Origin: a virus
Lineage: Duplodnaviria; Heunggongvirae; Uroviricota; Caudoviricetes
Strand: one strand, 5' to 3'
Virus record (IMG/VR): IMGVR_UViG_2778261009_000008
Location: 1-51,038 of that record
Length of the DNA: 51,038 nt
The position numbers and the translations under genes are program-made. The notes below the pieces were generated by a model. It was given only the letters and a program-made list of their open reading frames with translations. It was not told the DNA's origin and ran no database searches. The number at the start of each line of letters is the position of its first letter. The first letter of the stretch is position 1. Below, piece after piece: positions 1 through 20,640 of the stretch.

Positions 1-1131
1 TCAAATGACCAGTTTTTTCCATTCCTTACCGCGTGCGTCGTTGTAAATATCGGTCATTTTTTGATTCGAATGGCCCAGCAAAATTTTGGTATCAATTCCC
101 TGTTCTCTGAACAATCGTTCTGATAAAGATCTCTGCTCATGGAAAGAGGGTGGGGTGCCATTAGCACGCCAGTTGTAATCCACAGAATCCCGGGCTTTTT
201 TAAATGCAACGGTTAACGTTGCTGGCTTAACCATCCCGCCGCGCTTAGCTGTCCCTTTAGCATGATGGTGGTGCAATAGCCACGGACTAAGAACGCAATC
301 GCGACAGGATGACACCACATCATCCAGGGTGAGATTTAATTTATCGCAACGCAGAGCCAGAGGGATGGCAATCCGGGTTCCTGTTTTTTGCTGTTCGACA
401 TGAAGATAACCATCCCTGATATCCGAAAATTTCATTTTGCAAATATCTGAAAGGCGCTGGCCTGTCATCAGTGCCAGCAGCATACCACGCTGTAAAAAGT
501 AACCATCCTTTTCCGCTGCATTATAAATCATCATCCACTCATCAAAGGTCAGTCGTTGCCGTGATATCCGTACCTGTGGTTTTTTTGCCGATTCTGCAGG
601 GTTAAAGCCTAGCGGGACATCGCCCGTTTGCTGGGCCTCCCGGAAAACATCGATCAGTACTTTCCTGAAAATTTGTCCCATTCTGTTATGTCCTTTTGCC
701 TTGTAATCTTCCAGCACCGATACCACATCTTTTACGGTTATGGCATCTAATGGTCTGGTACCAAAACGTTCATCAAATACTCTGAGAGGGGATGCTTTCT
801 GTTTCAGTGTGTTGAGTTTGATCTCTCCGTTTTCATATCTTTCCTGTTGAATTTTTCGGTAACTATTCAGAAAAGCAGAAACGGTTGATGGACTACCGGT
901 ATCACTAATAATTTTCTCCTGCAGACTGAGCATTTGTTCCATTTGTTGCCTGGCAAGACGGCTGTTCGCTTCTGCTGCAAGAGCTTCTGCCTGTTTCTGG
1001 TCAATACTGCCGAGTCCGTGATTTTTTCCTGTTATGGGATGCCTGTAACGCCAGTAAACTTTGTTATTTCTTTTGTCAAAATACGGAGATAATCCCGGAA
1101 CTTCAGTTTTATATTTTCGTGGGCGCGCCAT
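1..1131 (-). CDS. int: Phage tyrosine integrase (lambda Int family)
   Basis: 376 aa ORF ending at window edge; N-terminal arm-binding-like region and C-terminal catalytic domain (…HDARG…Y) typical of lambdoid integrases; followed by an xis-like gene. Confidence 0.9.
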   Translation of the reverse strand: MARPRKYKTEVPGLSPYFDKRNNKVYWRYRHPITGKNHGLGSIDQKQAEALAAEANSRLARQQMEQMLSLQEKIISDTGSPSTVSAFLNSYRKIQQERYENGEIKLNTLKQKASPLRVFDERFGTRPLDAITVKDVVSVLEDYKAKGHNRMGQIFRKVLIDVFREAQQTGDVPLGFNPAESAKKPQVRISRQRLTFDEWMMIYNAAEKDGYFLQRGMLLALMTGQRLSDICKMKFSDIRDGYLHVEQQKTGTRIAIPLALRCDKLNLTLDDVVSSCRDCVLSPWLLHHHHAKGTAKRGGMVKPATLTVAFKKARDSVDYNWRANGTPPSFHEQRSLSERLFREQGIDTKILLGHSNQKMTDIYNDARGKEWKKLVI

Positions 1132-6465: not shown

Positions 6466-6487
6466 AAGCACGGTGTTCGGGGGGGTT

Positions 6488-7456
6488 ATGAGCAGCAAGC
6501 TTCATGGTCTTGTCTGGGAAGGGTGCGCCTTCACCGGCATGATCTTATCCAGGGTGGCGGTTATGGCCCGTCTTGCAGACTACAGCAATGACGAGGGCGT
6601 GTCATGGCCTGCCATTGAAACTATCCGGCGTCAGATCGGTGCAAGAAGTGAATCCACCGTTAAATCTGCTATTGCAGAACTGGCGAAAGAGGGCTGGCTG
6701 ACGAAGGAAGAGCGTAAGGTCGGTGGGCGTAACGTAAGCAATATCTATCGGCTTAATGTGGAAAAACTCGAAGCAGCTGCAACTGCGGCGCGTGAGGCAT
6801 ATAAACCGAAAAGAAAAATTAGCCCGGCAAAAAATGACCCGTTAACAGTTAACCCGTCAAATATTGCCCCCTCAACGGTTGACCCGTCAAATGTTGATGG
6901 ATCAACGGTTGATAAAAAACTGCGTATTAGGGGGGCGATGATTGACCCCGATCCGTCAGTATTAAAACCTGATCCGTCAGATAAAAGATCTTCTTGTCCG
7001 GACGTTTCACTGCCGGACGAAAAACGATCATCACCAGTTGAGCGATTTCTGGAGAAACACCCAGATGCGCATACCTGGAATGTACCGAAGCGACAGTGGG
7101 GTACCCGTGAGGATGTCGCCTGTGCGCAGTGGATTTGGGGACGGGTTGTGGCGTTGTATGAACAGGCCGCCAGTGATGATGGTGAGGTGTCACGCCCCAG
7201 AGAACCTAACTGGACGACCTGGGCGAATGATGTGCGCATGATGCGTATGCTGGATGGACGTAGTCACCGGCAGATTTGTGAAATGTTTGGGCGTGTCCAG
7301 CGGGATTCGTTCTGGGTAAAAAACATCATGAGTCCGGCAAAACTCAGGGAAAAATGGGATGAACTGGTTATCCGCCTGGGGCGTTCGCCCGCGCAGCGTT
7401 GCGTAAATCACATTTCTGAACCGGACACTGAAATACCGCCGGGATTCAGGGGGTGA
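6488..7456 (+). CDS. Replication initiation protein (lambda O-like)
   Basis: About 322 aa; N-terminal winged-helix-like domain, central repeat-encoding linker containing DNA iterons, C-terminal domain; followed by a DnaC-like gene. Confidence 0.75.
   Translation: MSSKLHGLVWEGCAFTGMILSRVAVMARLADYSNDEGVSWPAIETIRRQIGARSESTVKSAIAELAKEGWLTKEERKVGGRNVSNIYRLNVEKLEAAATAAREAYKPKRKISPAKNDPLTVNPSNIAPSTVDPSNVDGSTVDKKLRIRGAMIDPDPSVLKPDPSDKRSSCPDVSLPDEKRSSPVERFLEKHPDAHTWNVPKRQWGTREDVACAQWIWGRVVALYEQAASDDGEVSRPREPNWTTWANDVRMMRMLDGRSHRQICEMFGRVQRDSFWVKNIMSPAKLREKWDELVIRLGRSPAQRCVNHISEPDTEIPPGFRG
6836..6995. repeat. Iteron-like direct repeats inside the O-like gene followed by an A/T-rich tract (candidate replication origin)
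   Basis: CCCGTCAAAT(A/G)TTG x2, TCAACGGTTGA x2, CCCGTTAACAGTTAA, then GATAAAAAACTGCGTATTA and GATCCGTCAG x2; mirrors the lambda arrangement of ori within O. Confidence 0.5.
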
Positions 7457-7462
7457 TGTGGC

Positions 7463-8209
7463 ATGAAAAACATTGCGGCAGTTGGGGTTCTTGAATGTAT
7501 TCGCAGACTTGCACCACTGGGGGCGGTTCCACCGTACCGGACGGTGGAGGAGTGGCGGGAATGGCAACTTGCTGAAGGACGAAAACGCAGCGAGGAGATT
7601 AACCGCCAGAATCGCCAGTTGCGGGTGGAAAAAATCCTGAATCGTTCGGGCATCCAGCCTCTGCACAGCAAATGCTCGTTTGCAAATTATCAGGTGCAGA
7701 ACGACGGGCAAAAATACGCGCTGAGCTAGGCCAAATCCATAGCTGACGAACTGATGACCGGGTGCACGAATTTTGTGTTCAGCGGTAAAACCGGCACCGG
7801 GAAAAATCACCTTGCAGCGGCGATGGGCAACCGGCTGATGGTGAAGGGGCGCAGCGTGATTATCGTCACCGTGTCTGACGTCATGAGCGTGTTGCATGAC
7901 AGCTACGACAACGGCAAATCCGGGGAAAAATTTTTACAGGAGCTTTGCGGGGTTGATTTGCTGGTCCTGGATGAAATAGGCGTCCAGCGGGAGACGAAAA
8001 ACGAGCAGGTGGTATTGCACCAGATAATTGATCGCCGGACAGCATCACTGTGCAGTGTTGGGATGTTAACAAACCTGAATCATGCCGCAATGAGTACGCT
8101 TCTTGGTGAGAGGATTATGGACCGCATGACCATGAACGGTGGTCGATGGGTGACGTTTAACTGGGATAGCTGGCGTCCAAATGTCAGCAATATGAGGGTT
8201 GTGAAGTAA
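7463..8209 (+). pseudogene. DnaC-like helicase loader interrupted by an in-frame TAG (7727-7729)
   Basis: ORFs 7463-7729 and 7754-8209 are in the same frame and together align along the length of DnaC (…NRSGIQPLHSKCSFANYQ… then Walker A FSGKTGTGKNHLAAA, Walker B LLVLDEIG); the TAG sits where DnaC has a Lys codon. Confidence 0.65.
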
Positions 8210-8230: not shown

Positions 8231-8947
8231 ATGGAAACCGTATCTGACGCACTGAAAGCACTGAAAAAAGCCTCTTCACATGTGGTGGCTGCGCGCCTTG
8301 GAATCAGTCGTGAAGAGGCTGTCAACGAACTGTGGAAACTGAAACGCCGTGGTGAAGCGGATAACAGGGGGGCGATGTGGTGGCTGACTCAGGCTGGGGA
8401 AAGTGAATCTGTGATACAACCACCAAAAGTGACGGCGCAAATGCTGACAGAGGCGATTGAACAACATGGCCCACAAACGGCGGATGAGCTGGCATTGATG
8501 TTCGGAATTACCTCCCGCCGTGCGAATTCATCGCTGGCAATGGCAATCAGCAAAGGGCGTCTGATTCGCGTGAATCAGGGCGGTAAATTTCGTTACTGCA
8601 TGCCGGGCGATAATTTACCAGTAGAGCCGAAAGCCGCATCTGTAGCGGAAACGGATGGTAAAGCCCTTCCTCAGCCAGCAGGTGTTGCGTTACCAGTCCA
8701 GCAAACGACTACACAGGAAGATATTAAAACAGAAACTGTGGTGGACATTGTGCAGTCGTTGCCACTGTTCACCGAAACGCAAGCGGATGACCTGGTTTTA
8801 CCATCGCTGCATATGGCAAACCGCGAACTGCGTCGGGCGAAAAGTGATGTCCAGAAGTGGGAGCGAGTCTGTGCTGCGCTGCGGGAACTGAACAAACACA
8901 GGGATATTCTCCGGGATATTACCGCCACCAGAGAGCAGCAGCGGTGA
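8231..8947 (+). CDS. Hypothetical protein with N-terminal winged-helix-like domain
   Basis: 238 aa ORF with good SD (GGAGGAAATTTTAATG); no family recognised. Confidence 0.6.
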
Positions 8948-9261
8948 GTGGCTGGAAGAAGTGGCGTTGGGCTGAAATCCTGATACTCCGGCAGTGTGCG
9001 GGAACGATGAGAGTCGAAAGCATCGGTTATCTGATTGGCCGTAGTGAGTCAGCCGTCAGGACGAAAGCGCGGGAACTGGGGATCAGCATGATGTTACGGG
9101 GTGATTATCACCAGTCAGCCAAATTCTCACAGCGTGATATTGAGCTGGCGCGGCAACTGCATCAGCGTGGCGTACCCCGACGGGAAATTGCCGAAAAGTT
9201 TGGGATGAAGTTGGGCGCAGTGAATAACTACGTTTATTTCGACAGGAGGCTTCAGGAGTGA
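8944..9261 (+). CDS. Hypothetical small HTH protein
   Basis: GTG start overlapping the preceding stop (GTGA); about 105 aa with HTH-like segments; translationally coupled. Confidence 0.45.
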
Positions 9262-9554
9262 GGATTTATATCGCCGGTCCGATGACGGGATATGAAAATT
9301 TTAACCGCGAGGCATTTCACAAGGCGGCAGAGGCGCTGAAACGGGAAGGGCATACCGTTTTAAATCCGGCTGTGCTTCCGGACGGGCTGACTCAGCCACA
9401 CTACATGGATATTTGCATGGCAATGCTCCGTTGCGTGGATGCGGTTTACATACTGAAAGGCTGGCAGCAGTCGGCAGGTGCAAGGACTGAGCTGGCACTG
9501 ACGGAGAAACTGGGTCATGCGGTTATTTTTCAGGAGGTGGTCAGTGAATATTGA
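9258..9554 (+). CDS. Nucleoside 2-deoxyribosyltransferase-like protein (DUF4406-like)
   Basis: 98 aa; N-terminal IYIAGPMTG and downstream SAGARTELALTEKLG resemble the NDT-fold signature with a catalytic Glu. Confidence 0.6.
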   Translation: MRIYIAGPMTGYENFNREAFHKAAEALKREGHTVLNPAVLPDGLTQPHYMDICMAMLRCVDAVYILKGWQQSAGARTELALTEKLGHAVIFQEVVSEY

Positions 9555-9814
9555 CCCGGCGATAACGATTGATACGGCCCTGAATACCGGCCTGGCACTT
9601 CTTGGTTATTTCTACATCATGTTCTGCAGCGGACGATGGATGTCACTGTTGTTCATGAAAAAATGGAATAAACGCCGTAGGCAGGATCAACGCCAGCAGG
9701 CAATGGATGCATTTTTCGAAGCCTTCGGGATTGACGGTATGGAACCAGGAGATCCAGCTCGCGCAATCAGCAGAGGGGGCGTAGTAATCCTTGTATATCG
9801 GAGTGAAGAGAAAA

Positions 9815-10132
9815 ATGACGATCACAAAACAACGTGTAGAAGAAATCATATCCCGCATTGGAATGTATGGACATGGTGCAGGGTATACCGCAGACGAGGT
9901 TAATGATCTGGCTGTACTGGCGCTGAATTTATCAAATATCGCGAACCTGAAGCGATACGAGCTTGATATGGGTGGTTGCGACTCGTGCGGTCAGGATTGT
10001 GGCGCTGATATGACTGAAGATCCTGATGGTGATTATGTCCTGTTTGATGACGTGGTTAAGTTGTTTGAATTTGATACAACCACTCAAAAGTTAGAAATCC
10101 CGGCAAAGGAGGCAGCCAGTGAGCAAGATTGA
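9815..10132 (+). CDS. Hypothetical acidic protein
   Basis: ORF 9791-10132; most plausible start MTITKQR at 9815 after a purine-rich SD; C-terminal Cys cluster CDSCGQDCG. Confidence 0.45.
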   Translation: MTITKQRVEEIISRIGMYGHGAGYTADEVNDLAVLALNLSNIANLKRYELDMGGCDSCGQDCGADMTEDPDGDYVLFDDVVKLFEFDTTTQKLEIPAKEAASEQD

Positions 10133-10556
10133 CTATCAGGCACTGCGTGAGGTAGCACAAAACTATCAATCGACGCTGGCGTGGTATCAGGAAAAGCCAG
10201 ACAGTCCAAACGCTGAACAGGATTGTGATGCAGCTTTAGCGGCGTTTAAGCGTCACATCCGTCATCGGGAAGCGGATATTATCGCTGATTTGCTGGATGG
10301 ACTGGAAGAAGCAAAATCACAACTCAACGAGCAGCGTGAGTATTACGAAGGCGTTATCTCTGATGGGAGCAAGCGTATTGCTGAACTGGAAGCGCGGGAA
10401 GTTCAATTACCGACTCGCTACGACCTTCGATATGGACACCCGATAAATGCAGATGAGCGACAAGTCATGATACCTAAAGAAAATGGCAGTTGGCTTTACC
10501 TGATTGACCTAGAACACGCATTACGCGTCGCTGGCATTCGCATCAAAGGAGAGTGA
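10119..10556 (+). CDS. Hypothetical phage protein
   Basis: 145 aa ORF overlapping the previous stop; coiled-coil-like middle. Confidence 0.55.
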   Translation: MSKIDYQALREVAQNYQSTLAWYQEKPDSPNAEQDCDAALAAFKRHIRHREADIIADLLDGLEEAKSQLNEQREYYEGVISDGSKRIAELEAREVQLPTRYDLRYGHPINADERQVMIPKENGSWLYLIDLEHALRVAGIRIKGE

Positions 10557-10557
10557 T

Positions 10558-10857
10558 ATGGCGTTAACACACCACGAACTCTGTCAGATTGCGTACAAGT
10601 TCCTTAAGCGCAACGGGTTCAAGGTTTGCTTTCATGACCGCTTTGTTGCTGTAACCAGTACCGGAGAACAGCCAGATGCTATGGGATTCAGAAATTCAGC
10701 ATCATGCCTGATAGAGGCGAAGTGTTCTCGTGCTGACTTGTTGGCAGATAGAAAAAAGCGTTTCCGTAAAAATCCCTCATTTGGCATGGGCGACTGGCGA
10801 TTCTTTATTAGTGAGCCGGGAATTATTTCAGTTGAGGATTTACCTCCCGGCTGGTGA
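10558..10857 (+). CDS. Small PD-(D/E)xK / VRR-NUC-like nuclease-fold protein
   Basis: 99 aa; motif …QPDAMGF…(12)…CLIEAKC… matches a PD…E.K catalytic core; start 1 nt after the preceding stop. Confidence 0.5.
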   Translation: MALTHHELCQIAYKFLKRNGFKVCFHDRFVAVTSTGEQPDAMGFRNSASCLIEAKCSRADLLADRKKRFRKNPSFGMGDWRFFISEPGIISVEDLPPGW

Positions 10858-11144
10858 TTACTTCACGTTGTTAACGGAAGAGTACGGAAAGTACATGGAT
10901 GGCCCAGGGGTAATTGCTGTTGGGGTAATCCTGACGATAAGCCATTTACTGGAAATAAGCAGGTTGAATGCGATTACATGTTATCTGCATTAAGGCGCAT
11001 GGAGTTGAGAGGGCACCTTAATGAAATATATGACGGTGTAATTGTTAATAAGAAAGAAGGAAACGCGGCATGACCACTATTACCAAAGATTGACTGCTGA
11101 CAATCCAGCATTGGCGCGAAACATACGGACCGGGTAGCAACGTT

Positions 11145-11657
11145 GTGCTTCCAGCAGAAGAAGCGGAAGAGCTGGCACGGATTGCGCTGGCATCACTGGC
11201 AGCAGTATCGGATGAACGAGCAGCCTATGAATTATTTATGGAGAAGCGTTTCGGAGAATCTGTAGATCGCCGCAGAGCAAAAAATGGCGATAGAGAATAC
11301 ATGGCATGGGATATGGCGCTTGGCTGGATTATCTGGTGTCACCGCGCCGCCATGCTTCAGGCTGGAAACTTTCGGGAAAATAAGGGTTCGTCAACCAATA
11401 ATTTTCGGGAAATCTCGGAAACGTCAACCAACTATCCGGTAACTCCGGATGGTTGGATAAGCTGTAGTGAGCGAATGCCGGATGATGGTCAGCACGTAAT
11501 TATTTTATGTGATGGCGCATTCGTTCTTTATGCGCAATATCGAGACGGTGAGTTTTTTGATGTAGTCCGTAATGGTGATGAATTTTTCGAAACACAGAGC
11601 CGCAATGTAACCGGCTGGATGCCGCTACCAGAACCGCCGCAGGAGGTGCGCCAATGA
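11145..11657 (+). CDS. DUF551-domain phage protein
   Basis: 170 aa (GTG start); C-terminal …WISCSERMPDDGQHVIILCDG…VTGWMPLPEPP is the typical DUF551 signature. Confidence 0.65.
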   Translation: MLPAEEAEELARIALASLAAVSDERAAYELFMEKRFGESVDRRRAKNGDREYMAWDMALGWIIWCHRAAMLQAGNFRENKGSSTNNFREISETSTNYPVTPDGWISCSERMPDDGQHVIILCDGAFVLYAQYRDGEFFDVVRNGDEFFETQSRNVTGWMPLPEPPQEVRQ

Positions 11658-11737
11658 ACTGGCCTGAAGCATTTGCAATTACAGGCGTTGCTATGGTTAT
11701 CGCTTTTTTAATATATGTTATTTGTCGGTGGGGGTAA
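11654..11737 (+). CDS. Small hydrophobic peptide (27 aa)
   Basis: MNWPEAFAITGVAMVIAFLIYVICRWG with perfect SD AGGAGG 7 nt upstream; single predicted TM helix; below track cutoff. Confidence 0.45.
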   Translation: MNWPEAFAITGVAMVIAFLIYVICRWG

Positions 11738-11772
11738 AAACGTTCGCCGGGATTCACACCAAAGGAGGGAAT

Positions 11773-11877
11773 ATGTCGGATGATATCTCACTGGCAATGG
11801 AAGGCGCTCTGGCCGTTATTGTTGTTGTGGGTGTTTACTGCCTGGTCGTGCTTTTGATGGATCGTCTGGGGAGCTGA
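11773..11877 (+). CDS. Small hydrophobic peptide (34 aa)
   Basis: MSDDISLAMEGALAVIVVVGVYCLVVLLMDRLGS with SD AAAGGAGGG upstream; single TM helix. Confidence 0.45.
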   Translation: MSDDISLAMEGALAVIVVVGVYCLVVLLMDRLGS

Positions 11878-12043
11878 ATTCATTACGATATGGGAATTTC
11901 CATATCGGGTAAAAAGGGGGGAGTAAAACGAGAGTCAAGTAGATGTATCGGTCAAAAATTGAGCAGTAAAAGGGGCGATATTAATCGCCCTTGAGTTGTA
12001 TTAGTTATCATTTTGTTGCCTTGCCGGGAGTAAGTCGAGCTTG

Positions 12044-12688
12044 CTATTTAACTGTCCATGCCGGGCTGAAATCCACTTCCTGAAATAACTCAGTTAGCCC
12101 GCTAATTTGTTTAAGTCTCAGTACTTCATCCTGATCCATACCCAACTCAGTGCCAATGCGTTCATCTGCCCATCCCAAGCGTGAAAGATCTCTTACAATA
12201 TCAGACACTGAGTCTATCTGGTGTTTCCCCCTAGCCCGGTTATGTCGAATGGTTGCGGCAATGCGTGCGGCTTGCCCTTTTCTCTCTGGATTAATACAGG
12301 CTACAGGCAGCCAGCCCCTCAGACGTTTTCCTGTAACTGATTCTCTGCCCAATAACTGACGATGAAAACCATCCACCACCAGATAATGATTCTTCTCCTC
12401 TGACACCACCACCGGTTGTGTGAAACCATCTTTTTCCAGTGACTGCTTCAGCAGTTTCTTCTCACTTGGTGCCATGACATTGGGGTTATAATCGTTGGCT
12501 ACCACCTCATCCGCTTTCACCCACAGCACACAGTCTACAGGCTCCTGTGCAAAAGGACTGACTTCATGCAGTACCCCGCGCAGATGGTTAAGGGCTCGTA
12601 TGGACTCTTCTTCGGGCTGTTCCCGACTGAAGTACTGACGAATCATGTTGCTTAGTACATCCATCTCAGGCGTCACAGAATCCCCCAT
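12044..12688 (-). CDS. ParB-like nuclease domain protein (IbrB-like)
   Basis: 214 aa; ParB/Srx-fold motifs (…YLVVDGFHRQ…, …IRHNRARG…); overlaps the upstream PAPS-reductase-like gene. Confidence 0.8.
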   Translation of the reverse strand: MGDSVTPEMDVLSNMIRQYFSREQPEEESIRALNHLRGVLHEVSPFAQEPVDCVLWVKADEVVANDYNPNVMAPSEKKLLKQSLEKDGFTQPVVVSEEKNHYLVVDGFHRQLLGRESVTGKRLRGWLPVACINPERKGQAARIAATIRHNRARGKHQIDSVSDIVRDLSRLGWADERIGTELGMDQDEVLRLKQISGLTELFQEVDFSPAWTVK

Positions 12689-13899
12689 TCTTTCCTCCTT
12701 TCCTTCATTCGTTGCAGATAACGCTCATAGTGCCGGGGTTTGTTCGGACTGAAGGAGAGGGTCCGGCACCAGAAGTCATTCTTTATGAGCGTCTTACAGA
12801 TACGTCGCCAGGACGGGATATCCCGGCTCCCCAGGTCATTCTCCTGTTCATCCGGGATATCATCCGGGAAGCCCCGCGTCTGATACCAGCGCAGGTAGAC
12901 TGCAATTTTGTTACGGTAATGTTCTGCTGTTCTTTCTGGCATAACATCCAGCATGAACATTGCGTAGCTGCGCCAGGTATGATGAGCCGGTTTTGTGATT
13001 CGTTTACGCAGAGCAAAATAGGCACCGCTTTCATTGGCATAAAGAGCGCCACTGGCAGCCCCTGACACTCGCTCACACATCCTGGCCCAGGTTTCCGGCT
13101 CCAGAACATGGTAAAGCCACAGCCCCTTACGCTGTTCCGGGCCAAAGGGCTCACAAACACGCATGTTGCGTAACGACACTCCGGCACGGTACATTAGGTC
13201 GTACAGGGGATTGTAGATGGCGCGGGTTCTTGAGTTATACGTCCATATATCATTTGTTTTCCAGTCATACAATGGATACATGGTGTAGTAAAAACCATCG
13301 GGTGAAGCGGTGGTCCAGGGTTTATCATCTGCATATCTCAGTTTGCGCTGAGACACCAGTCCCATAAAGCGATTGAGCGATTCATCAGCACGAACACCAG
13401 TTAGTATTCCCACTCCACATCGGTTACCGGCAAACCAGGAAGAAAATGCCGGAACAAATTCTTCAAACGTCATGGCATACCGATAAAATGGGAAATACGA
13501 CATATCTGTAATAGCGTCATCTGGTGGCTGACGAACCCATTCTACACCTGGCTCCCAACATATCCATTCTGGCTGAAACTGAGAGACGCCATTTACCGTA
13601 GTCAGAGGAAGCGCTACCCAGTAAAAATTGTCTGTCACATGCCGGTACATTTCCCTCATCTTTTGGATATGATTAATCGTGCACTGATATTGGGCTTCCC
13701 AGTCAATGAATAAAACCGAAAAACGACGTTTTTTTCTACTGGCGACTTCTGCCACAAGATGGAAAAGCACAGTAGAGTCTTTGCCACCAGAAAAAGACAA
13801 GCAGACCTCATTAAACGTTTCGAACAACCATTCAATGCGATGGATTGCTGCTGACAGAACATTTTCCCCTGTGCTGATTTTTGTTATGGTTCCTGACAT
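12673..13899 (-). CDS. PAPS-reductase-like PP-loop ATP pyrophosphatase (IbrA-like)
   Basis: 408 aa; PP-loop motif SFSGGKDS near the N-terminus; AT-rich promoter-like region upstream (13900-14050). Confidence 0.85.
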   Translation of the reverse strand: MSGTITKISTGENVLSAAIHRIEWLFETFNEVCLSFSGGKDSTVLFHLVAEVASRKKRRFSVLFIDWEAQYQCTINHIQKMREMYRHVTDNFYWVALPLTTVNGVSQFQPEWICWEPGVEWVRQPPDDAITDMSYFPFYRYAMTFEEFVPAFSSWFAGNRCGVGILTGVRADESLNRFMGLVSQRKLRYADDKPWTTASPDGFYYTMYPLYDWKTNDIWTYNSRTRAIYNPLYDLMYRAGVSLRNMRVCEPFGPEQRKGLWLYHVLEPETWARMCERVSGAASGALYANESGAYFALRKRITKPAHHTWRSYAMFMLDVMPERTAEHYRNKIAVYLRWYQTRGFPDDIPDEQENDLGSRDIPSWRRICKTLIKNDFWCRTLSFSPNKPRHYERYLQRMKERRKEWGIL

Positions 13900-18336: not shown

Positions 18337-18412
18337 GGCCCTTTAGCTCAGTGGTGAGAGCGAGCGACTCATAATCGCCAGGTCGCTGGTTCAAATCCAG
18401 CAAGGGCCACCA
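18337..18412 (+). tRNA. tRNA with anticodon CAT (Met, or Ile2 if lysidine-modified)
   Basis: Hand-folded cloverleaf: acceptor GGCCCTT/AAGGGCC, D-arm GCTC…GAGC, anticodon loop CTCATAA, T-arm GCTGG-TTCAAAT-CCAGC, encoded CCA. Confidence 0.85.
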
Positions 18413-18421
18413 TATCACATA

Positions 18422-18498
18422 CCGCCATTAGCTCATCGGGATAGAGCGCCAGCCTTCGGAGCTGGCTGCGCGGGGTTCGAGTCCTCGATGGCGGTCCA
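18422..18498 (+). tRNA. tRNA-Arg (anticodon TCG)
   Basis: Hand-folded cloverleaf: acceptor CCGCCAT/ATGGCGG, anticodon stem CCAGC/GCTGG with loop CTTCGGA (U33, G37), T-loop TTCGAGT, encoded CCA. Confidence 0.8.
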
Positions 18499-19261: not shown

Positions 19262-20640
19262 TGCTGTGAAGTGTTAAATTCCTCACAATTCAGTAAGTTG
19301 ACAGTTGCCTGTCAGACTGGGCATTTGTTAAAAAAATTTCGCATGGTGAATCCCCCTGTGCGGAGGGGCGACTGGTGAACGGTATGATCTCTTTGATGAT
19401 CGTAAGCGAGAATACGCGGGTTTAGTGTCACCGGGCTGAACTCACCGGGAGGCACCCGGCACCATGCTCATGGTGATACAGAAATGCGGCTTCAGCCCCT
19501 CTCTGGAGGGGCTTTCTTATGGACAAAAAAGCCCGCGCTGGGAGACGCGGGCGGCAAGGAATAAACAATAAAACGTGAAGTAATATTTCAGCTGGCGAAT
19601 AATACCCCATAGTAATCACTCTGCGCAACTGCGCGGCCTTTTTCGAATTGCGGGCTGTAGTCTCCCTTCTGCCGGGTGGCCTGGTTGCAGATTTCTTCAT
19701 GGGGTAGGGTTCGGCAGTTAAAGCAGCGATGGCGCTGGGGCGTCGTGCTATAGGCGTTGAGCTGGATACCGGGCGTTTTGAACAGACTGCGCAGGCAATC
19801 AGGGATATATTTATCGGTAGCTGTTTGCAGAAGTAATCTCCCAAAATTCCATTTTTGGAATGCAGTGGTTGTTGCTGTAGTGTGGGCAAGTTCTGGAACT
19901 GGCTTCGTCCATTGCAGATGATTGTTAGCTGGATATCAGTTACCTCATGGAAATGTTAAATGACTCACAGTTCGGTTGATGGACTATTGTCTGATTGATG
20001 GAAGTCTTGTAAAAACGAGCCAGCATAGTGAATCCCCCTGTGCGGAGGGGCGTCTGACATGGTCTCCATAGCGATGGTCACAATACGCAGATTCAGTAGT
20101 CAGGCTGAATCTACCGGGAGGCACCCGGCACTATGCTGCTTATGGTGTATACACAGCGATCGGCCCCTCTCCTGAGGGGCTTTTTTTGTGCGGGAAAAGG
20201 CTGTGTTGTGAAATGTTAAATTCCTCACAATTCATGAGGTTGATGATTGTCTGATTGATGAGGAGTTTGTTAAAAAAAGCGGGCATGGTGAATCCCCCTG
20301 TGCGGAGGGGTGATATCGTATCATTTCCTGTGTGGTCGACTGATATCACGGACATTTGTTCACCGGGAGGCACCCGGCACCATGTAGTATACAGAGATTA
20401 GGCATACATCCAGGCTCCTCATTGCAGGAGCCTTTTTACATGCAAAAAAAACCGCTCCAGGGAAGAGCGGTTGGCAAGGAATAAATAACAAAACGTGAAG
20501 TAATTTATTCAGCGCCCTAATAATACCTTACAGTAATCACATTGCGCAACTGTATGTAAGGGCGTATTTCTTTTTTGCGGGCTGTTTTGTGTGACTTTTG
20601 TGTTTCCGGAGGTCAGCCCGTGCCTTCTCTGACTCAGAAC
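19262..20640. repeat. Triplicated non-coding module (conserved blocks A-B-C plus hairpin, three tandem paralogous copies)
   Basis: Block A (GAAATGTTAAATTCCTCACAATTCA) at about 19270/19949/20210; block B (GTGAATCCCCCTGTGCGGAGGGG) at 19347/20028/20287; block C (CACCGGGAGGCACCCGGCACCATG) at 19443/20112/20361; each followed by a GC hairpin (T-run clear only in copy 2); an about 80-bp block D at 19554 and 20473. Confidence 0.6.
19681..19835 (+). pseudogene. Duplicated 3' fragment of the DNA methyltransferase gene
   Basis: About 125 bp near-identical to 18156-18290 (the C-terminal 47 codons of the 17238-18296 gene) with a TCG to TAG change; no start or upstream gene body. Confidence 0.7.

Follow-up and report, generated by a model that had tools for sequence, protein, structure and literature searches.

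A probable mosaic cassette of early accessory genes, with a nonsense allele of an MmcB/Hjc-like nuclease gene, in a lambdoid prophage next to ompW

What does a run of small genes between the replication genes and an IbrB/IbrA-like pair contribute to a lambdoid phage? We examined this question at positions 9258-11877 of the IMG/VR virus record IMGVR_UViG_2778261009_000008 (Caudoviricetes). The window is the whole stretch of DNA that was analyzed and contains 51,038 nucleotides (nt). The initial annotation had described the run as a nin-like accessory block. It named a protein with the nucleoside deoxyribosyltransferase (NDT) fold, a "mini" PD-(D/E)xK nuclease of 99 amino acids (aa), and two tiny membrane peptides, and it suggested anti-defence or host-takeover functions. 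With a probability of about 80%, the early accessory genes of the block are non-essential and form an ordinary mosaic cassette. The cassette would belong to a defective lambdoid prophage next to ompW, and its nuclease gene would be pseudogenised.

A sequence search placed the locus in a bacterial chromosome. Positions 9000-12000 of the window are 100% identical to the chromosome of Escherichia coli JNEC-KY203, where the copy lies within a lambdoid prophage adjoining ompW. The order of this prophage is integrase, excisionase, exonuclease, dicB, the repressor region, YdaT, the replication genes, DUF1627, a helix-turn-helix (HTH) gene, and the block. The IbrB/IbrA-like pair follows 3' of the block on the opposite strand, and then DUF968, RusA, and Q. 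In the window, the block is likewise flanked by the replication genes and the minus-strand IbrB/IbrA-like pair (Table 1). Because it lies between the replication genes and DUF968-RusA-Q, it occupies the position equivalent to lambda nin. Of 5426 complete E. coli genomes, 291 contain at least 80% of the 3-kb query and 3186 contain parts of it.

The block contains eight small co-directional genes on the plus strand. The HTH and DUF4406 genes overlap by 4 nt (GTGA), the DUF4406 and DUF4752 genes by 11 nt, the DUF4752 and PHROG-3126 genes by 89 nt, and the PHROG-3126 and Ead/Ea22-like genes by 14 nt. A 1-nt gap separates the Ead/Ea22-like gene from the nuclease gene. The junctions of DUF551 with the nuclease gene and with the open reading frame (ORF) of 27 aa are each 4-nt overlaps (ATGA). 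A 35-nt spacer bearing AGGAGG precedes the 34-aa ORF. Every gene of more than 100 codons has strong Pfam or PHROG support, and, judged from sequence, the ORFs of the block are not chance ORFs. The strong profiles and the overlapping or near-abutting junctions therefore bear out the initial annotation of a run of small, tightly coupled genes between the replication genes and the IbrAB-like pair. It had also described these genes as lacking a recognised function. Profile searches of Pfam, NCBIfam, and PHROG agreed, assigning none of them to a well-characterised housekeeping function. No block protein matched an NCBIfam model, and Rfam detected no RNA family within the block.

The block and the replication genes are most likely transcribed rightward as one unit from an early promoter, as the coupling suggests. 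No plus-strand promoter-like site was found in 8800-12200, and the total promoter count was at shuffle expectation. A GC-rich hairpin with a terminator pattern on both strands separates the plus-strand block from the convergent IbrB/IbrA-like genes. The total hits of the terminator scan were not above shuffle expectation, so this hairpin is proposed as a terminator from its position.

The cassette is already known and common. It stands, mostly under DUF or hypothetical annotation, in hundreds of complete E. coli genomes. O157:H7 prophages, such as that of strain 493/89 (NZ_CP038412.1 2267311-2269932), have the same order of DUF1627, HTH, DUF4406, DUF4752, 105-aa, and Ead/Ea22-like genes. The order continues with DUF551, the 27-aa ORF, and the 34-aa peptide, and the run again lies between the replication genes and DUF968-RusA-Q. 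Identity to the window is 96-98% across the shared parts. The O157 copy differs in that a 63-aa gene fills the nuclease slot, DUF551 is intact (195 aa), DUF4752 is 105 aa long, and hokD replaces the IbrB/IbrA-like pair.

The label "nin-like" holds for position and not for content. As in lambda nin (P to Q), the genes lie 3' of the replication genes and 5' of Q and of RusA, which encodes a Holliday-junction resolvase, and they are small, overlapping, co-directional, and non-essential. None of the eight (0/8) matches a lambda or P22 nin family in Pfam (NinB/Orf, NinG/Rap, NinH, NinX, or other). A second likeness is to the exo-xis (ea) region. The Ead/Ea22-like, nuclease, and DUF551 genes and the 27-aa ORF have the same relative order in phages 1717, JLK-2012, 933W, and PhiR12_5. 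Stx2 phage 1717 reads exo ... Ead/Ea22, nuclease, small ORF, DUF551 ... int. In JLK-2012, 933W, and PhiR12_5, the 27-aa ORF and genes for Ea22 or DUF551 are likewise in the early-left region. In the window, by contrast, these modules lie beyond the immunity region and are part of the early operon that is read rightward; the Ead/Ea22-like gene follows the replication genes instead of lying in the exo-xis interval. The most fitting description of the cassette is a set of modules of exo-xis type attached to DUF4406 and DUF4752 at a nin-like site.

The initial annotation of the block was incomplete in other respects. The run itself was recognised. The DUF4752 protein, the PHROG-3126 protein, and the Ead/Ea22-like protein were omitted, and the stop in DUF551 was missed. 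The "mini" nuclease proved to correspond to codons 1-99 of a gene with 171 codons. The 99-aa ORF (10558-10857) aligns base for base with gp06 of Stx2 phage 1717 (171 aa), and only one difference is disruptive, a TGA in place of GGA at codon 100. After the TGA, 71 sense codons follow in the same frame, up to a normal stop at 11071-11073. The sister prophages of SCU-106 and STEC2018-607 (99.6-99.7% identity) have GGA at codon 100 and an intact 171-codon ORF. The nuclease gene is evidently inactivated by a recent GGA-to-TGA mutation, and its small size is that of a strain-specific nonsense allele.

The family to which this gene belongs is large. The full-length protein matches PHROG 9263 with an E value of 2e-123. 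A profile search retrieved 3228 representatives at 50% identity, nearly all of 150-190 aa and with whole-profile matches. Across 49 diverse members, L8, D40, D60, G78, R81, and E137 are invariant. H5, E37, P39, G43, E53, K55, S57, D64, K67, R70, G76, P96, W99, G100, L101, and R146 are near-invariant. The codon-100 stop strikes the W-G-L motif, and E137 and R146 are lost. The window copy thus falls short of the full length of the MmcB/Hjc-like phage family (PHROG 9263/631; ~150-190 aa).

The PD-(D/E)xK fold itself was recovered. The AlphaFold model of the nuclease (predicted local distance difference test [pLDDT] score, 87) has its alpha-beta-beta-beta-alpha-beta core at residues 5-85, followed by a hairpin (100-113) and a long helix (134-150). 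D40 and E53-x-K55 form the D...(D/E)xK motif on the core, as in the PD-(D/E)xK superfamily, and fold comparison agrees. The full-length protein had no Pfam match above threshold, and it did not reach the gathering score of the MmcB-like family PF06319. Relatives gave matches at sub-threshold scores only, to Hjc in 30 of the 49 members and to MmcB-like in 13. Single-sequence and profile searches of the PDB returned nothing significant; the profile aligned its D...IExKxSRxD(F/L)xADxK stretch to 3dnx at a nonsignificant E of 0.43.

The MmcB-like structure 3dnx nevertheless shares with the nuclease the core, D40, E53-x-K55, and the S-R-x-D-(F/L)-x-A-D-x-K stretch that follows. The superposition includes the C-terminal part of the nuclease and covers 132 of 146 residues with 24% identity. 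Viral structural neighbours also include proteins named MmcB-like. The family differs from MmcB and Hjc in residing on phages and prophages, and the copy in the window is cut short. In Caulobacter crescentus, MmcB is an endonuclease of the PD-(D/E)xK type and confers protection against mitomycin C and cisplatin (PMC9578287). An intact copy of the phage gene would be a structure- or damage-specific DNA endonuclease in phage DNA recombination or repair.

Could the 99-aa product be functional as it stands? It might be a minimal PD-(D/E)xK nuclease, or programmed read-through of the TGA might give the full length. The first 99 residues do hold the core with D40, E53, and K55, and the 72 codons 3' of the TGA are still open and in frame. 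The open frame also fits a recent mutation, however, and the GGA of the sister prophages argues for one. A 15-billion-protein collection has 15 contigs with exactly the 99-aa product and at least 1000 with the 171-aa form. The family is uniformly 150-190 aa long, and the stop removes or disrupts E137, R146, and W99-G100-L101. Other genes of the prophage bear different stops (TAG in the DnaC-like gene and TGA in DUF551), which points to random decay. We consider a functional 99-aa nuclease or programmed read-through very improbable.

The Prokaryotic Genome Annotation Pipeline (PGAP) labels 10558-10736 as "frameshifted". It gives the same label where the 171-codon ORF is intact, and this looks like an annotation artefact. 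We rejected a frameshift here, as the frame is intact and the label recurs in SCU-106 and STEC2018-607. The family under this label has no Pfam or NCBIfam model.

Decay of the prophage extends to other genes. The DUF551 gene matches PF04448 with 73.4 bits (cutoff, 22; E, 2.7e-20). It begins MTTITKD(stop)LLT in the window and MTTITKDRLLT in the O157 homologue. The codon-8 stop is common to SCU-106 and STEC2018-607, and the intact 195-aa form is on at least 1000 contigs. An N-terminally truncated product from 11094 or 11145 is possible. The restart candidates are CTG 11094, chosen by PGAP, and GTG 11145, the first standard start; visual inspection found no obvious Shine-Dalgarno sequence at either. 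A single-sequence PDB search with DUF551 returned nothing significant. The DnaC-like replication ATPase gene contains an internal TAG (YALS(stop)AKS), and PGAP calls it a pseudogene. The integrase is frameshifted according to PGAP. The frameshifted integrase and the other stops therefore mark a defective (cryptic) prophage. Since the prophage is decaying, at least two of the eight block genes probably yield no full product.

The block contains two in-frame TGAs at a distance of 236 nt. Systematic TGA recoding or a suppressor was rejected as the explanation. The DnaC-like stop is a TAG, and relatives have sense codons at all three stop positions. The two TGAs also differ in origin. The first is a demonstrated GGA-to-TGA change, and the second replaces Arg, presumably by CGA to TGA. 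Neither the codon nor the kind of substitution is uniform among the stops, which therefore fit random decay and not recoding.

Table 1. Features of the block and its surroundings in the window
Feature	Position	Strand	Basis or remark
Integrase gene	1-1131	-	PGAP
Replication genes	6473-8209		Flank of the block
DnaC-like replication ATPase gene	7463-8209	+	Internal TAG at 7727-7729
DUF4406 gene, 98 aa, GTG start, intact; stand-alone minimal NDT-fold protein	9258-9554	+	Pfam and fold
DUF4752 gene, 119 aa, GTG start	9544-9903	+	Pfam PF15944, PHROG 667
Hypothetical protein, 105 aa, PHROG 3126	9815-10132	+	PHROG 3126 at 3.8e-66 over full length; PGAP-annotated
Ead/Ea22-like protein, 145 aa	10119-10556	+	Pfam PF13935, PHROG 250, PGAP
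MmcB/Hjc-like PD-(D/E)xK nuclease gene, 171 codons, in-frame TGA at codon 100	10558-11073	+	Alignment, PHROG 9263
Nonsense TGA replacing GGA (Gly100 of W-G-L motif)	10855-10857	+	Alignment column 298; sister genomes have G
DUF551 gene, 195 codons, in-frame TGA at codon 8 (11091-11093)	11070-11657	+	Pfam PF04448
Single-pass membrane peptide, 27 aa (MNWPEAFAITGVAMVIAFLIYVICRWG), unannotated	11654-11737	+	tblastn conservation, hydropathy
Single-pass membrane peptide, 34 aa (MSDDISLAMEGALAVIVVVGVYCLVVLLMDRLGS)	11773-11877	+	PGAP WP_072149359
GC-rich hairpin, terminator pattern	11971-11992	both	Separates block from convergent IbrB/IbrA-like genes
IbrB/IbrA-like pair	12044-13899	-	Flank of the block
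tRNA and STnc100 features	18337-18495, 19312-20443	+	Rfam

The DUF4406 protein matches Pfam PF14359 with 120.5 bits (cutoff, 22; E, 4.1e-35) over profile positions 1-91 of 91. GTG 9258 is its correct start. AGGAGG lies 8 nt upstream, and the Pfam profile aligns from residue 1. The invariant Y4, A6, and P8 and the near-invariant G7 all lie before the ATG that PGAP picked in JNEC-KY203. PGAP takes the earlier start in SCU-106, and the late start was chosen in some genomes. The AlphaFold model (51 homologues; pLDDT, 92) has beta-strands alternating with helices. This flavodoxin-like alpha/beta fold superposes on solved members of the NDT superfamily, and the NDT fold proposed for the 98-aa protein is upheld. 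The Pfam family PF05014 (Nuc_deoxyrib_tr) gave 14.8 bits, far under its cutoff of 28.8. Single-sequence and profile searches of the PDB with DUF4406 returned nothing significant, and only the fold comparison was informative.

The conserved residues of DUF4406 are Y4, G7-P8-M9, G11, N16-R17, S72, G74, and E78. Y4 is invariant and E78 is near-invariant, and both are placed at the expected secondary-structure positions. A further conserved loop reads N36-P37-A38-x-L40-P41-x-G43-L44-x-Q46-x-x-Y49-M50. This invariant loop (NPAxLPxGLxQxxYM) sets DUF4406 apart from the NDT superfamily. Compared with NDT, Rcl/DNPH1, MilB, and DUF1937 (PDB 1t1j), DUF4406 also lacks the C-terminal segment that in true NDTs completes the neighbouring active site.

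DUF4406 would bind a nucleoside 5'-monophosphate-type ligand and would probably cleave its N-glycosidic bond, in the manner of Rcl/DNPH1 or MilB. Cleavage would use the conserved Glu78 after the Ser72-x-Gly74 loop. The N-terminal Tyr of DUF4406 and its Ser-x-Gly-x-x-x-Glu element after strand 4 would correspond to residues that nucleoside 5'-monophosphate N-glycosidases such as Rcl/DNPH1 and MilB use, namely a catalytic Tyr, a Ser that binds the 5'-phosphate, and a nucleophilic Glu.

Several points weigh against the functions that we propose for the cassette. The mechanisms for DUF4406, DUF4752, PHROG 3126, DUF551, and the peptides are all drawn from fold. The equivalence of Glu78 and Ser72 to Rcl and MilB is based on motif spacing and secondary-structure position. 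An hhalign comparison of the DUF4406 alignment with a human DNPH1 sequence gave a probability of 0.4 and no usable alignment. The residue mapping is therefore putative. DUF4406 may also only bind its ligand, because it has 98 aa and no C-terminal extension of the kind found in true NDTs (135-160 aa). For the nuclease, low-frequency read-through of the TGA could possibly yield a trace of full-length protein.

The surroundings of distant DUF4406 genes vary. Some genes adjoin a Dam methylase and a P2-type gpA, some are near NinX, NinH, and DUF968, and some are in capsid-portal islands. DUF4752 was never a neighbour at the loci examined. We found no conserved gene partner and no co-varying host system. 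These varied phage contexts indicate that DUF4406 is a mobile single-gene module without a fixed partner. A literature search retrieved no paper on the function of DUF4406 or DUF4752.

A few database proteins join DUF4406 and DUF4752, probably by a single-indel fusion and not as a true domain fusion. A functional link of the two through such a protein (169 aa, P0128) was considered and rejected. Distant DUF4406 genes lack DUF4752, and the fusion is not evidence because the 11-nt overlap lets one indel fuse the genes.

The stand-alone, mobile DUF4406 gene in its variable phage contexts is also what an anti-defence or host-takeover block might contain. DUF4406 would then destroy or sequester an immune nucleotide signal or a nucleotide pool, and other products would inhibit defence. 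Its fold is common to enzymes and domains of nucleotide and NAD signals (NDT, Rcl, MilB, TIR, and ThsB). The block genes are early, small, and non-essential, and so are many known anti-defence genes. Against this, the eight block proteins matched no PADLOC model at E values up to 0.01, where the models represent defence and not anti-defence. Literature searches found nothing linking DUF4406, DUF4752, or DUF551 to defence. The lack of a conserved partner or co-varying host system also speaks against it, and two of the cassette genes are broken in the window copy. The only relatives of cassette genes with experimental characterisation suggest other roles, Ea22 acting in the choice of lysogeny and MmcB in the repair of DNA (PMC7093339, PMC9578287). 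An anti-defence block is unlikely on this evidence, and the idea is a prior and not a finding. The ordinary mosaic cassette is the reading that we keep.

The next three genes of this cassette are known by family. The DUF4752 protein matches PF15944 with 130.3 bits (cutoff, 27; E, 2.7e-38) and PHROG 667 at 5e-41, the latter over residues 1-93 only. Its conserved domain ends at about residue 93. The C-terminal tail extends 89 nt into the next gene (9815-9903) in another frame. Its length is set by a polymorphism, TGG in the window giving 119 aa and TGA in O157 giving 105 aa. It has one moderately hydrophobic N-terminal segment, with a maximum 17-residue hydropathy of 1.51 at residues 12-28. The PHROG-3126 protein has no Pfam match, and its 90%-identity cluster has 562 members. 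The Ead/Ea22-like protein matches PF13935 with 50.9 bits (cutoff, 27; E, 3.2e-13) and PHROG 250 at 1e-44. It is 145 aa long, compared with 182 aa for lambda Ea22. Ea22 proteins have a mosaic make-up in which DUF551 is one of the alternative C-terminal domains (PMC10834534). They favour lysogeny (PMC7093339). DUF551 also occurs in YfdS of prophage CPS-53 (PMC10834534, PMC7093339, PMC4776307).

Residues 65-117 of the Ead/Ea22-like protein match the N-terminal MucB_RseB family of Pfam barely above threshold (23.9 versus 22.3 bits). Some members of its cluster carry the MucB_RseB name at NCBI. The match is probably a coiled-coil artefact. An N-terminal MT(T)ITK followed by an acidic/hydrophobic helix ending in ...ALASL/ALNL is found in the PHROG-3126 protein (9815-9900), in DUF551 (11070-11200), and in gp05 of phage 1717. 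This segment may serve as a recombination linker between mosaic modules.

Both ORFs at the 3' end of the block encode predicted membrane peptides. The 27-aa ORF is coupled translationally to DUF551 by the ATGA overlap. A tblastn search matched it in 92 phage records (amino-acid identity, 48-67%), and 90 of these contain its full length. Its hydropathy is 2.64 over 17 residues. Homologues in O157, JLK-2012, 933W, the virulent phage Av-05, and PhiR12_5 are 27-28 aa long. In these five, the end motifs are MxWP(E/D)A...(C/F)RW(G/R), with a hydrophobic core between them. The starts of these homologues overlap the 3' end of the upstream gene, mostly by ATGA, and a Shine-Dalgarno sequence precedes them. 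In POCJ13, a stop lies within the 27-aa ORF. None of the records examined annotates this ORF, and its exact sequence is absent from the 15-billion-protein collection. The 34-aa ORF has AGGAGG 7 nt upstream, a hydropathy of 3.15, and a conserved counterpart in O157. Contigs with precisely this sequence number 653, and those with a variant number at least 1000. Conservation, coupling or a Shine-Dalgarno sequence, and a hydrophobic span make both peptides likely to be real genes, and conservation and hydropathy back the two tiny membrane peptides of the initial annotation. Both would insert into the inner membrane.

Hok/sok-type loci stand directly 3' of the 27-aa ORF in 933W (hokW/sokW) and of both peptides in O157 (hokD). 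In the window, the IbrB/IbrA-like pair is in the place of this hok neighbour.

The two peptides might carry the main function of the 3' part of the block, as membrane toxins or modulators with a role in type I-like killing, in exclusion, or in the timing of lysis. Each has one strongly hydrophobic span, and the length and end motifs of the 27-aa ORF are kept across temperate and virulent phages. Their position just upstream of hok/sok loci in O157 and 933W agrees with this; such adjacency may, however, merely mark mosaic boundaries. Neither peptide matches Pfam Hok_Gef or any other toxin family in Pfam, and Rfam detected neither a Sok-like RNA nor any other antisense RNA family in the block. 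The 34-aa peptide also has an acidic N-terminus and no basic C-terminus. A toxin or modulator role seems quite doubtful. Two separate proposals are likewise speculative and improbable. One is that DUF4406, carried by temperate and virulent phages as a mobile module, is a minimal nucleotide N-glycosidase or sponge directed at a nucleotide-derived immune signal or modified nucleotide. The other is that the 27-aa peptide founds a new membrane-effector family.

Other features of the window lie outside the block. The minus-strand pair 3' of it consists of an IbrB-like protein (ParB_N, weak) and an IbrA-like protein (PAPS_reduct plus DUF3440). The IbrA-like protein has weak PADLOC matches to BrxP (4.5e-8) and DndC. 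There are two tRNA genes (Ile and Arg in the matching genome), and three copies of the small RNA STnc100 are 3' of Q (Rfam, 121-172 bits).

The cassette has little weight as a discovery, as it is present in O157:H7 prophages sequenced long ago. If DUF4406 did act on immune signalling nucleotides, it would be new as an anti-defence enzyme and very small; we saw no indication of such activity. The contribution of this analysis is in corrections, those to the PGAP calls for the nuclease locus and the DUF4406 start included. The "mini nuclease" is a nonsense allele of a 171-aa gene, which belongs to a large Pfam-less phage family structurally nearest to the MmcB-like repair nucleases. The records examined also leave unannotated a 27-aa membrane ORF that is conserved and is coupled to genes of the DUF551/Ea type.

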